Source of the DNA: Escherichia phage PMBT16
Sequence record: PP554575
Reading direction: 5' to 3' (one strand)
DNA: 64,000 nucleotides
Part shown: piece after piece, positions 38,832 to 41,512 of the stretch
Layout of the letters: each line of letters begins with the position of its first letter
Position numbering within the stretch: position 1 is the first letter of the stretch
Made by a program: the position numbers and the translations under genes
The notes under the pieces: generated by a model
Seen by the model: the letters and a program-made list of their open reading frames with translations, nothing else
What the model was told of the DNA's origin: nothing
Databases searched by the model: none

Positions 38832-39116
38832 ATGGTAGTAGAGCCAACAAAAACATTTACATCCATGACCATTCCTGTTATTATGCAGGTGGAGTGTGTT
38901 CAGGTATCTCAAGTGTGGCCTGGCACCAAAATCCCAACAGGGCCTGATTTCTTTCAGGTTGGGAAAGTGTACAATGTCTGGAAGGCACCAGATTGTTACC
39001 CTTTCATTAAAGATGACCGTGGGATGCTGTGGTATCTTGGAAATGACTTGACACTGCACCTTGGGAATGCTATTATTGCAGTATTCAGACTTAACAAGAA
39101 GGAGACCGATCAATGA
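38832..39116 (+). CDS. Small protein, KDD-G-W family member 1
   Basis: ATG after GAGGAGA; core GKVYNVW ... IKDDRGMLWYL shared with next two genes. Confidence 0.5.
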   Translation: MVVEPTKTFTSMTIPVIMQVECVQVSQVWPGTKIPTGPDFFQVGKVYNVWKAPDCYPFIKDDRGMLWYLGNDLTLHLGNAIIAVFRLNKKETDQ

Positions 39117-39340
39117 CGACTTTGGTTAAAGCTACCTTTGTAGAAGAAAAGATGACAGACCTGTCATTCTTTAAAGAAGGAAAGACCTACGAGGTTTATT
39201 ACGATAAAGCTCGTGCAAACAAAATGATTAAAGACGAGGAAGGGGTTGCCTGGTATATCTCTCACCTGGCAAACGGTGAGTATCATATCTACGGAACCAC
39301 TTTGCTTGCCAAGTTTGTAGTTGTTGAAGAGGACCTATGA
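39113..39340 (+). CDS. Small protein, KDD-G-W family member 2
   Basis: Coupled start; core GKTYEVYY ... IKDEEGVAWYISH. Confidence 0.5.
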   Translation: MTTLVKATFVEEKMTDLSFFKEGKTYEVYYDKARANKMIKDEEGVAWYISHLANGEYHIYGTTLLAKFVVVEEDL

Positions 39341-39531
39341 AAGTAAAGTATCTTGCTGAAGGTATGAATAGGTATTTTACCCTTGGTGAAGAATATTGGC
39401 CCTTTACAAACAACGGTGATGTCTACGTGAAAGATAATTTCGGCACGCCGTGGTTTCTGCACTCTAATGGGCTGGGATACTCCATTTACTGCGGTGCAGT
39501 GAACAACACAACCCTTGCAGAGTTCGTTTAG
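39337..39531 (+). CDS. Small protein, KDD-G-W family member 3
   Basis: Coupled start; core GEEYWPF ... VKDNFGTPWFLHS. Confidence 0.5.
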   Translation: MKVKYLAEGMNRYFTLGEEYWPFTNNGDVYVKDNFGTPWFLHSNGLGYSIYCGAVNNTTLAEFV

Positions 39532-39541
39532 AGGAGGTAGG

Positions 39542-39913
39542 ATGTTAGTAAAAGGTACCCACACAGTCAAACAACGTATTGAAGTTGAGATTGATGATTG
39601 TGAGCTGAAGCATATTTTACGGTCATGCTCCAACGTTTTGCTCCTTAGCATTCTTCAGGAGCGAGCAGAGAACGAGTTCTTAAATGCACTGGCAGGCCGT
39701 CCTGGTGACTTCTGTGTGCGTAAGCGTGGTGACAACAAGTCATGGCTGTGGGAAATCGATGCCGACTGGGATTACCACAAAAATGAGGGCATAGATGAGC
39801 CTATTCGTGAATTGACAGACAAAGAGGTTCAGATGTACAATGAAGTTTGTCATTGGGCAACACGCCAACAAATTTACCTCGACCCTGTGTGGCTGATTGA
39901 AAATAGTCATTGA
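39542..39913 (+). CDS. Hypothetical protein (123 aa)
   Basis: ATG after GAGGAGG. Confidence 0.45.
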   Translation: MLVKGTHTVKQRIEVEIDDCELKHILRSCSNVLLLSILQERAENEFLNALAGRPGDFCVRKRGDNKSWLWEIDADWDYHKNEGIDEPIRELTDKEVQMYNEVCHWATRQQIYLDPVWLIENSH

Positions 39914-39937
39914 CAAGAAGTAAGATTAGATATAAGA
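39909..39937 (+). promoter_or_regulatory. sigma70-type promoter whose -35 overlaps the upstream stop codon
   Basis: TTGACA-17 nt-TAAGAT; the TGA of the -35 hexamer is the stop of 39542..39913. Confidence 0.45.
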
Positions 39938-39989
39938 TGCTTCACACAAACAGAGTGTTGATTTTTAAATAACTAAGGAGACTGCTAAG

Positions 39990-40244
39990 ATGAAAATTAC
40001 TTTGAAGTCAGAATGCGTTGCAAATGACCGAGCTTTTAAAGATTGCACAGTCGGTGCAATTTATGAAGCAGAGTTTTGTGAGAACCCTCTGGTAAAAGCC
40101 CTTTTGGAAGAAGGAGCTCCTCTATCACAGGAAGAGCTTGATGAGTTGGAAAACTCAGCACAGTGCCTTACCTTTAAAGATGATGAAGGAGACTCTGTCT
40201 GGTGCACTGTTAACGAAGTCGTTTTTGTAAAACCTGAACATTAA
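39990..40244 (+). CDS. Small Cys-containing protein, DDxGD-C family member 1
   Basis: RBS AAGGAGA; motifs AFKDCTVGAIYEA ... FKDDEGDSVWCTV. Confidence 0.5.
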   Translation: MKITLKSECVANDRAFKDCTVGAIYEAEFCENPLVKALLEEGAPLSQEELDELENSAQCLTFKDDEGDSVWCTVNEVVFVKPEH

Positions 40245-40247
40245 TAC

Positions 40248-40285
40248 TTGACAACAGTGATGGGGCCTAATATAATAGCCCCATC
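40248..40285 (+). promoter_or_regulatory. sigma70 promoter with palindrome straddling the -10 box
   Basis: TTGACA (40248)-17 nt-TATAAT (40271); inverted repeat GATGGGGC (40259) ... GCCCCATC (40278) flanks the -10. Confidence 0.55.
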
Positions 40286-40307
40286 AAAACGAAAGGGGAC
40301 CACAGCA

Positions 40308-40568
40308 ATGACCAAACAATATCAACGAATTAAAGCCAAGGTTAAGCCAGACTATCTGGAGAAGGACTCTGCTTTTCGGGACTGCACAGCCGACAAAGTT
40401 TACACAGGGGCTGTCCTGTTGAACGATAAACTTGAAGTAGATGTGCTGGGTAAAGAGGCCGTTATCGAGGATGACAACGGTGACTGTGTTTTCTGCACCA
40501 CACGGGAGCTAGAAGTCTTAGAATACTTCGGTGAAATCTTCAACTCCTTAGACGACGAGGAAGCGTGA
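40308..40568 (+). CDS. Small Cys-containing protein, DDxGD-C family member 2
   Basis: ATG at 40308 downstream of the promoter; motifs AFRDCTADKVYTG ... IEDDNGDCVFCTT. Confidence 0.5.
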   Translation: MTKQYQRIKAKVKPDYLEKDSAFRDCTADKVYTGAVLLNDKLEVDVLGKEAVIEDDNGDCVFCTTRELEVLEYFGEIFNSLDDEEA

Positions 40569-40957
40569 TGAAAAATATTTGGGATATTGATATCTTTGAA
40601 GCTTCTAAGCTTGACGGTGCTGATGGAGTGATTATGGTGTCTGATGGCAAGGCAACACTAACTTCCGGAGATATCATCTATGCCTTGGACGAGCTGGCGC
40701 TTCTGAAATCTACCGGTAACACTTTAGAGGAGCGTCTTCAAGGCTTCGCCTTCAAAGAAGGCACAAATACCGCCATGATGTGCACCACACGGACAGTTCA
40801 GGTTGGTAACGGTGTCTATATGATCATTGCGGTGTGTCCTAAATTCAGCAACGTCAATAAAGATGATGCTGACGCTGTCAACGATGTGGTTGTTCTCTTC
40901 GTAGGTGACGCTATGGCAGACCTGATGAATGCAGGAGAAGCGGCAAATGAAGACTGA
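40565..40957 (+). CDS. Hypothetical protein (130 aa)
   Basis: Coupled start (GTGATGA). Confidence 0.45.
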   Translation: MMKNIWDIDIFEASKLDGADGVIMVSDGKATLTSGDIIYALDELALLKSTGNTLEERLQGFAFKEGTNTAMMCTTRTVQVGNGVYMIIAVCPKFSNVNKDDADAVNDVVVLFVGDAMADLMNAGEAANED

Positions 40958-41249
40958 AAACATTACCCCAGCAGGGTTCTTAAAAGTATACCGTGAACTG
41001 CTATATACTACAGAGGACAGTGTTCTAGAGTATCCAGAATATCTTTTGCTGTATAAGTATCTGCAGGAGGCTGGTGAAAATCTGCCAGTTAGTGCAGAAG
41101 GTGGTCCGAACTGGATATACAGCGCATGGAGAAAGGTTGACATTCTCCCAGATCCAGGTAAAGATATGGTAGTTTGGCAGCTTATCAACAACATTGGGAT
41201 TCCAATCTTTGATGAAGCTGTTAAAATCTATTTTGAACTTGACGATTAA
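40947..41249 (+). CDS. Hypothetical protein (100 aa)
   Basis: ATG at 40947 after AGGAGA, overlapping upstream stop. Confidence 0.45.
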   Translation: MKTENITPAGFLKVYRELLYTTEDSVLEYPEYLLLYKYLQEAGENLPVSAEGGPNWIYSAWRKVDILPDPGKDMVVWQLINNIGIPIFDEAVKIYFELDD

Positions 41250-41266
41250 TATCAGGAGACCTTAAG

Positions 41267-41512
41267 ATGACTGAAGTAGTTGCTCGCGCAGGACAGAAAG
41301 TACGTTGTGTTGAAGTAGGTTTTGGTGGCAAAGGGTGTCAAAACTTGACTCAAGGTAAGGAATATGCTGTTATTTCTGGTGGTGGCGACGAAAGTATTGT
41401 GTTCGAGGGCCACGTCCTGGATGCTGAAAACTTTGAAATCTTTGACGACGATGGGGATCCGATCACCTGCCTGCTGGACGGGAATTGGGGAACTTTCGAA
41501 GTGATTGGCTAA
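41267..41512 (+). CDS. Small Cys-containing protein, DDxGD-C family member 3
   Basis: RBS AGGAGA; motifs KVRCVEVGFGGKGCQNLTQGKEYAV ... FDDDGDPITCLL. Confidence 0.5.
   Translation: MTEVVARAGQKVRCVEVGFGGKGCQNLTQGKEYAVISGGGDESIVFEGHVLDAENFEIFDDDGDPITCLLDGNWGTFEVIG

Follow-up and report, generated by a model that had tools for sequence, protein, structure and literature searches.

Do the small genes that follow the DNA polymerase gene of a Vequintavirus genome encode variants of one protein domain and, if so, what fold and role can be expected of it? This question is raised by a stretch of 64,000 nucleotides from Escherichia phage PMBT16 (sequence record PP554575), hereafter the window, in which an earlier note had grouped six genes between positions 38,832 and 41,512 and two dispersed genes as one expanded family of small acidic proteins. 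The gene coordinates proved right for all eight, and relatives annotate the same genes. The analysis reported here shows, at the level of sequence, that A1, A2, A3 and B3 (listed below) are secure members and C1 a probable member of one domain superfamily. The window holds at least five copies of this domain and probably seven or eight. Further, A2 is predicted with high confidence to adopt the rare barrel topology of Gp54 of Escherichia phage Bas11. The genes under consideration are as follows.

38832..39116, plus strand: A1, 94 residues, with a long N-terminal part and beta1-beta2 region; phrog_12922
39113..39340, plus strand: A2, 75 residues, the best-characterised copy; predicted six-stranded beta-barrel
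39337..39531, plus strand: A3, 64 residues, the shortest paralogue; phrog_12802
39990..40244, plus strand: B1, 84 residues, isoelectric point (pI) 4.2, with a helical insert of ~25 residues between both motifs
40308..40568, plus strand: B2, 86 residues, pI 4.3; paralogue of B1
41267..41512, plus strand: B3, 81 residues, pI 4.1, with a 13-residue insert; phrog_4927
62458..62709, minus strand: C1, 83 residues, pI 4.3, 95-100% conserved within the genus; phrog_12851
17555..17788, minus strand: C2, a candidate listed as weak in the earlier note and rejected here
14318..14764, minus strand: open reading frame (ORF) of 148 residues, phrog_15992; possibly an additional member through its N-terminal half

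The source of the window is a Vequintavirus, an rV5-like coliphage and myovirus of ~137 kb. Escherichia phage nomo is 98.6% identical to it over the 2.9-kb cluster region, which is found in ~115 Vequintavirus genomes at 89-99% DNA identity and, at the DNA level, in no other genus. A family-A DNA polymerase gene (36005-38782) directly precedes the cluster, the genes follow in the order A1, A2, A3, X (39542-39913), B1, B2, Y, Z and B3, and a terminator-like hairpin at 41534-41564 closes it; the annotations of relatives hold the same cluster genes. The description of the proteins as acidic suits B1, B2, B3 and C1 (pI 4.1-4.3), applies mildly to A2 and A3 (5.0) and does not extend to A1 (6.5).

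Paralogy within the window

Smith-Waterman comparison (z-scores from 200 shuffles) and phmmer searches against all 451 window ORFs picked out three related pairs: A1 and A2 (z 10.2; E-value 4e-5), A2 and A3 (z 5.5; E 0.05-0.08, each being the top non-self match of the other) and B1 and B2 (z 10.8; E 1e-5 to 2e-6). The z-score of the remaining pairs never exceeded 4.3. In the A-type alignment of 21 orthologues and paralogues, F20, Y26, D41, G44, W47, A66 and F68 (A2 numbering) are invariant and G23 is nearly so. Judged from these alignments, A1, A2 and A3 are true tandem paralogues, as had been proposed for the first trio, and B1 and B2 are true paralogues of each other. The second proposed trio resolves into a pair plus one, since B3 has no specific kinship to B1 or B2 (z 2.8 and 1.5; hhalign P 0.005 over 15 columns) and is tied instead to the A group via intermediate sequences.

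Membership of a common superfamily

The link between the A group and B3 emerged from reciprocal iterative searches. A mini-database of ~1,550 ORFs from the window, the phages Bas08 and Bas10 and fetched loci was searched with jackhmmer, together with reversed and shuffled decoys. The search seeded with B3 gathered the relatives of B3, next the repeat-bearing P0090, P0092 and P0093, and finally A2 (2e-6); its first decoy stood at 0.46. Seeded with A2, it recovered proteins of the B3 type (4e-5 and 7e-5) and also B3 (0.015), the first decoy here standing at 0.52. Additionally, a hidden Markov model (HMM) was built from 38 foreign domain sequences, with window proteins and their close orthologues left out; its targets were the 451 ORFs of the window together with 1,804 decoys. 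The E-values under this foreign-only HMM were as follows.

B3: 8e-13
A2: 3e-10
A3: 3e-8
C1: 1e-6
A1: 7e-6
B1: 0.002
ORF 14318-14764 (minus strand): 0.005, over residues 46-82 ('HFTPGKEYTAF...')
B2: 0.03
Best of the 1,804 decoys: 0.2
C2 (17555-17788): 44, with 'DDEGE' alone aligned

The top eight window ORFs thus comprise seven of the eight genes of the earlier note and ORF 14318-14764, whose PHROG match falls in two parts. The alignments run end to end, and the insert between 'GKEYxV' and 'DDxGD' takes up 13 residues in B3 and ~25 in B1. C2, which had been offered as a weak member, appeared in no profile search at E below 8 and is not a member as far as these searches go. C1, which had been called a strong one, is judged probable.

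The main alternative as regards B1 and B2 is convergence: the window would hold several unrelated small-protein families, and 'FTxGKxY ... DDxGD' in B1 and B2, and perhaps in C1, would be a convergent or generic signature of a strand plus an acidic turn. We regard this as unlikely, and the evidence differs from one gene to another. For the A genes and B3 it is refuted by the reciprocal searches and by B3 itself, which reached 1.2e-4 when its own relatives, the C1-like sequences and the window sequences were all absent from the model; A1 then scored 6e-4, B1 0.023, C1 0.069 and a decoy 0.046. With C1-like sequences alone left out, C1 scored 0.019 (best decoy 0.1), B1 0.18 and B2 1.0. Across the leave-out models the ranges were 0.02-0.07 for C1, 0.02-0.18 for B1, 0.6-1.0 for B2 and 0.04-0.16 for ORF 14318-14764, with decoys at 0.05-0.1, and the values for B1, B2 and C1 speak for convergence. 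Similarly, direct comparisons between groups were not significant (z at most 3.9), and first-round hhalign between shallow family profiles gave probabilities of 1.6-6.7%, a result that was uninformative in itself.

Profile comparison of the enriched families speaks for homology. Against ~34 null comparisons with unrelated neighbouring genes and reversed profiles, none of which fell below P 0.035, hhalign related the A superfamily to the C1 family at P 1.2e-4 (probability 56%, 48 columns) and the B3 family to the C1 family at P 2.5e-4, over 30-48 ordered columns. The B family matched the A, B3 and C1 families at P 0.0018, 0.0027 and 0.0069, in each case through the same two motifs in the same order. 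An HMM of the B family scored foreign domains above shuffled (Mann-Whitney p 4e-9) and reversed (p 5e-4) sequences, the sequences being non-independent, while the single foreign-domain scores all fell short of significance. A further comparison of the A2-seeded with the B3-seeded family (97% probability) was circular through shared repeat-protein rows and was not used as evidence.

Several observations weigh against including B1 and B2. A shuffled B2 scores 0.1-0.2, nearly as well as B2 itself, and the case for the pair draws mostly on one feature in common with C1-like sequences, the acidic DDxGD hairpin. AlphaFold2 (AF2) modelling of B1 from 15 sequences was unusable (predicted local distance difference test (pLDDT) 51; predicted template modelling (TM) score 0.30) and gave no confident barrel. 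Look-alike motifs also occur in unrelated ORFs: the 77-residue ORF at 55369-55602 (plus strand) carries 'VQPDGDYWCTV', resembling KDDEGDSVWCTV of B1. The superfamily HMM did not match this ORF, only its shuffled copy showing at E 1.1, and the acidic-turn motif therefore recurs easily.

Taken together, the single family of the earlier note stands for A1-A3 and B3 and probably for C1. In the first four, and probably in C1, the similarity reflects homology and not composition. The link of B1 and B2 is weak; they may be distant members, and the N-terminal half of ORF 14318-14764 is likewise a possible one.

Distant relatives and known families

The domain has ~57 core residues and the consensus GDxhKC...FTxGKEYxV...hhxDDxGD. 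It opens with the strand 'GDxhKC', followed after a long loop by 'FTxGKEYxV'. An insert of variable length (0-25 residues) then leads to the acidic hairpin 'hhxDDxGD', which carries an aromatic residue or Cys three residues past the Gly, and C-terminal strands complete the domain. A reading of the acidic hairpin as a DxDxDG calcium loop was tried and dropped, as it fits C1 only, and B3 and the C1-like proteins of Drexlerviridae misfit.

The earlier statement that no known domain is present holds for the curated libraries: the best Pfam-A matches of the window proteins (E 0.03-0.14) were far short of gathering scores, and NCBIfam and PADLOC gave no matches. In PHROG each gene falls in its own family of unknown function, B3 being in the broader phrog_4927; the A genes cross-match one another weakly (phrog_3523, phrog_3249), as do B1 and B2. 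When 5.8e9 proteins were searched by word index, the A alignment, the B alignment and B3 each yielded Vequintavirus orthologues only.

With the A profile, a full HMMER search over 1.84e9 cluster representatives recovered the small proteins P0091 (67 residues) and P0095 (60 residues). Internal tandem repeats of the domain were found in P0093 (two units), P0090 (four; phrog_3523) and P0092 (five). The repeat units read 'GDxhKC ... FFTxGKEYxV ... hxhxDDxGD', a blend of the A and B3/C1 motifs. P0092 matched phrog_4927, the B3 family, at 2e-18, phrog_3523 at 7e-14 and phrog_12802, the family of A3, at 2.5e-4; P0093 matched phrog_3523, phrog_10169 and phrog_4927. P0092 lies on a phage-like metagenomic contig amidst DnaB-, Toprim-, DEAD- and RecA-family genes, and tblastn with it against GenBank phages gave no matches. 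The large matches P0088, P0089, P0094 and P0096 (ankyrin, FN3, beta-helix) were judged to be spurious accumulations of repeats.

Relatives of B3 occur in Klebsiella siphophages (VLCpiS13a gp54, BUCT610 gp73), Erwinia phage KEY and Mydovirus-sized Klebsiella phages, and those of C1 in Drexlerviridae (bas08_0073, bas10_0065) and IMG/VR contigs. The earlier proposal of a lineage-specific expansion does not agree with this distribution, as the domain is spread over Drexlerviridae, Klebsiella siphophages, Demerecviridae and metagenomic phages and also forms internal repeats. Bas08 (DanielBernoulli) and Bas10 (IsaakIselin) each carry, besides Gp54, several small superfamily-like genes. Profiles matched bas08_0073, bas08_0079, bas08_0050, bas10_0050 and bas10_0065; bas10_0074 is borderline at E 0.2-0.5, and bas10_0081 was recognised as domain-like by visual inspection only. 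Vequintavirus is thus not alone in carrying several copies.

Among the window proteins and their distant relatives there are matches, often to several profiles at once, to PHROG families 4927, 3523, 3249, 9122, 2684, 10169, 16833, 17857 and 25234 and to the genus-specific families 12922, 12623, 12802, 12544, 11936 and 12851. These PHROGs together describe one domain. PHROGs keeps them separate and unannotated, and in the sources searched there was no link among them or to a solved structure.

Predicted fold and resemblance to Gp54

AlphaFold2 modelling of A2, without templates and from an alignment of 21 rows, gave an all-beta, six-stranded barrel with a mean pLDDT of 90.9. The strands span residues 3-10, 25-31, 36-40, 46-48, 56-60 and 64-70, and a long loop (11-24) joins the first two. 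We predict with high confidence that A2 shares the rare topology of Gp54 of Bas11 (PDB 9AXB, phrog_7421; PMC11578894), in which six strands form a beta-barrel and the beta1-beta2 loop is long. For B3 and C1 the same fold would follow from shared superfamily membership with A2. The earlier note had named an SH3-like barrel for structural checking, and the fold class of a small beta-barrel was right: SH3-like five-stranded small beta-barrels are likewise all-beta barrels of similar size, and SH3 domains are the nearest folds published for Gp54 (PMC11578894). A search of BFVD returned dozens of uncharacterised phage proteins, mostly from Drexlerviridae and Vequintavirinae, of 60-80 and in some cases 120-170 residues, at TM-scores of 0.7-0.8. 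Two of these hits, a 78-residue 'putative minor capsid protein' of phage isim and a protein of 'Klebsiella phage 066039', were not identified with window genes or B3 relatives in the parts examined.

Gp54 has been described as an orphan of rare barrel topology, without function and with relatives in close Drexlerviridae only. It is known solely for triggering CapRel, an immune sensor of bacteria. Like A2, it is a phage protein of ~65-75 residues forming a six-stranded small beta-barrel with a prominent beta1-beta2 loop. Its pI of 5.2 makes it mildly acidic, A2 and A3 having 5.0, and its gene lies among small genes of unknown function. The differences are also considerable: Gp54 shows no significant sequence similarity to the window proteins, belongs to a different PHROG, lacks their acidic DDxGD hairpin and N-terminal K-C strand motif, and is single-copy in a siphovirus of ~50 kb, whereas the window proteins number 5-8 copies in a myovirus of ~137 kb. 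The Gp54 homologue of IsaakIselin (Bas10) reads MQDQIEVKVIRRNPELTPGIFKKGVEITIDLEEMVCYHSGLTWKV...

Sequence comparison lends the structural resemblance no significant support, which counts against the explanation favoured below. PDB sequence searches with the A profile (no matches at E <= 10), P0095, bas08_0073 and bas08_0079 gave no link to 9AXB, and jackhmmer from Gp54 recovered its own family only. With hhalign, the superfamily matched Gp54 at P 0.23 with 2 Gp54 sequences and, against controls at 0.08-0.5, at P 0.036 with 23 sequences, which is not significant. Despite its P of 0.036, the alignment of the A superfamily with the 23 Gp54 sequences is full-length and in structural register, with 'FTxG' placed on 'FKKG' (G24) and 'DDxGxxW' on 'YHSGLTW' (G40, W43). 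In the A family, the invariant Gly ahead of beta2 and the hairpin with its invariant Gly-x-x-Trp coincide with G24 and G40/W43 of Gp54. G24 and W43 are the two sites to which escape mutations of Bas11 (G24D and W43*) map (Zhang et al., Nature 2024, PMC11578894).

Proposed role

Gp54 binds CapRel(SJ46) at its antitoxin domain via partial unfolding, is dispensable for phage growth in the laboratory and has no established role for the phage; its authors suspect that it inhibits some other defence system (PMC11578894). The Gp54 residues that bind CapRel (I25, I29, L31, S39, L41, Q47, N50 and W53) are not conserved in the window proteins. Homologues of Gp54 from Bas5, Bas8, Bas10 and SECphi27 do not activate CapRel (PMC11578894), and since even such close homologues fail, there is no default expectation that the window proteins would activate it.

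The earlier note had suggested interaction with host or defence proteins. By analogy this fits, as the sole characterised structural relative directly binds a defence protein. The overall explanation that we favour, with moderate confidence, is a multi-copy small-barrel domain whose window representatives serve as stoichiometric binding modules. Stoichiometric protein binding is suggested because the proteins are small, lack catalytic motifs, are mostly acidic, have sigma70-like promoters in a replication or early region and have relatives with tandem arrays in single polypeptides. Most likely they are small modules, expressed early, that bind proteins of the host or of its defences. The barrel of each paralogue would be a stable scaffold, and the beta2-beta3 insert and acidic hairpin would form variable specificity surfaces, each for a different host, defence or phage partner. 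Some copies could, by analogy with Gp54, be sensed by host immunity.

As an analogy of role only, T7 Ocr is likewise small, acidic, non-enzymatic and early-expressed and acts by binding, and proteins of the Ocr type can block one defence system as well as set off another. Ocr itself, a dimer, is helical, mimics DNA and is unrelated in fold and sequence to the window proteins. In the preprint of the EVADES anti-defence compendium, Gp54, barrels and CapRel are not mentioned.

Three considerations temper this reading. A fixed housekeeping role would account for the strong purifying selection and the universal presence at least as well as an arms race would, the position inside a replication module could mean a replisome-related function, and Gp54, the sole characterised structural relative, is itself without an established phage function. 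The main functional rival makes the proteins accessory factors of the replication module, small acidic barrels acting on the phage or host replisome, single-stranded DNA-binding protein (SSB) or DNA, for example by modulating polymerase or helicase or by mimicking DNA. On one side of the cluster is the family-A polymerase gene and on the other a putative SSB gene (by the annotation of one relative); the orientation is the same, and there is one terminator at the end. The neighbourhood of the five-repeat P0092 described above and the B3-like and A-like genes adjoining helicase genes in Klebsiella phage VLCpiS13a and Bas10 point the same way, as do the strong purifying selection and the universal presence in the genus. 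However, related Vequintavirinae genera with the same polymerase are without the cluster at that position, so that it is not part of the core replisome; in Mydovirus, Henunavirus and Vibrio phage JSF1 no members were found in the syntenic region downstream of the polymerase. Moreover, C1 and ORF 14318-14764 sit elsewhere in the genome, the domain is scattered over accessory small-gene regions in Drexlerviridae, and Gp54 is dispensable in the laboratory. We therefore consider a replication accessory role quite improbable.

Returning to the binding modules, a broader version may be put forward, but only tentatively, as we incline to doubt it. The six-stranded Gp54-type barrel would be a widespread modular 'adaptor' scaffold of phages, encoded by genes that stand singly or in tandem arrays and also present in polypeptides of several repeats. 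The 5-8 copies of Vequintavirus would then form a permanent set of binders, with a separate target in host immunity or host takeover for each to neutralise or decoy, and some would double as pathogen-associated patterns sensed by CapRel-like or other bacterial immune sensors.

Coding status and selection

Selection was examined in the window and six relatives (seven Vequintavirus genomes, 89-98% DNA identity) as gene-wide values. The frame and length of every cluster gene are kept in all seven, at a synonymous divergence (dS) of 0.17-0.58. The ratio of nonsynonymous to synonymous divergence (dN/dS) is 0.016 for A1, 0.17 for A2, 0.11 for A3, 0.04 for B1, 0.13 for B2 and 0.11 for B3; for comparison, the polymerase C-terminus gave 0.14 and the neighbouring gene 41596-41961 gave 0.012. 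Ribosome-binding sites of the GGAG type lie ahead of the gene starts, the ATG of A1 being preceded by GAGGAG, and the start position of A1 is the same in relatives. The flagged cluster ORFs are real coding genes under purifying selection. It is hardly conceivable that they are annotation artefacts or non-coding, with motifs that are accidents of base composition: although they are only 64-94 residues long and none has a function or curated family, the idea is refuted by the conserved lengths and the dS and dN/dS values, and the Shine-Dalgarno sequences, a full-length PHROG match for each ORF and the high-confidence model of A2 also speak against it.

The earlier suggestion of diversifying selection found no gene-wide signal in the seven genomes, dN/dS of 0.016-0.17 being purifying. 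All paralogues are present in every Vequintavirus genome examined, so the expansion is old and stable and not ongoing. The computation shows the copies to be products of old duplications, older than the genus and held by purifying selection.

Some variation in gene structure was seen. The A1 orthologue of rV5_ev158 (L021, 3133-3450) has 105 residues against 94 in the window, as in some metagenomic contigs (e.g. P0031), through an 11-residue internal duplication (KAPDCHPFIKE) directly before the IKDD hairpin. In some contigs (P0065) B2 and the next gene Y (window 40308-40957) are fused in frame into a product of 131 residues, probably a frameshift or deletion variant. This fusion accounts for a spurious hhalign match of B against Y among the controls.

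Expression signals

Promoter sites were predicted as matches to the sigma70 consensus, and the 8-kb surroundings scanned contain 18 of them against 10.5 +/- 3.4 in shuffles. The signals in and around the cluster are as follows.

40248..40276, plus strand: promoter-like site between B1 and B2, a perfect TTGACA-17-TATAAT (12/12)
39048..39076, plus strand: promoter-like site inside A1, upstream of A2 (11/12, extended -10 TG)
39910..39938, plus strand: promoter-like site in the gap upstream of B1 (10/12)
41534..41564, plus strand: intrinsic-terminator-like hairpin after B3, with a 14-bp stem, conserved in relatives

Six relatives have both hexamers of the sites at 40248 and 39910 without any change; for the site at 39048 the relatives keep the -10 hexamer and differ in one base of the -35. 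The annotation of phage Murica calls the counterpart of the hairpin a terminator. Early expression, as the earlier note had assumed, fits these conserved promoter matches, which are themselves predictions. At 40248-40290 the -10 hexamer of the perfect promoter lies in the loop of an 8-bp inverted repeat (GATGGGGC / GCCCCATC), whose arm varies in relatives while both hexamers are unchanged.

Neighbouring observations

The window has the DNA polymerase gene (36005-38782) as a single intact ORF of 925 residues. An HNH homing endonuclease gene splits it in FV3, VB-EcoM-WM and isim, leaving a separate C-terminal piece of ~118 residues, and the unannotated phage Aya gives the same truncated reading (183 of the last 299 query codons). 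Downstream, an endonuclease VII gene follows the orthologue of the 408-residue gene (window 41961-43187) in VB-EcoM-WM (L019, 7529-8152) and rV5_ev158 (L021, 7551-8174), where the product of that gene has 423 residues. This insertion is absent from the window, FV3 and YN3.

Beside C2, window 17790-18319 (minus strand) holds consecutive genes of ~87 residues. Phage isim (42756-43545) has two adjacent copies of the same VOG, isim_76 and isim_77, and the window apparently has one. These genes would represent a small tandem family of their own, in which the copy number varies. Lastly, 16 GenBank records (MG0656xx) labelled 'Campylobacter phage' with the host Campylobacter jejuni are 95-98% identical to window 38700-41600, and their host label looks doubtful.

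Implications

The fold became known in 2024, and the PHROG families are on record, though unannotated. Undescribed in the libraries searched is the link of the Vequintavirus paralogue set to the Gp54 fold. The union of A-type, phrog_4927-type and probably C1-type proteins in one superfamily, and the multi-repeat forms of the domain, are likewise undescribed in the libraries searched. A structural twin of Gp54, modelled with high confidence, is now seen in an unrelated myovirus. Sequence ties this twin to a large superfamily split over more than a dozen unannotated PHROGs, and many 'hypothetical' small phage genes thereby gain a fold and a name. The Vequintavirus phages Bas48-52 of the BASEL collection carry these genes, so that their triggering or blocking of defence, and their partners, become questions that can be asked.

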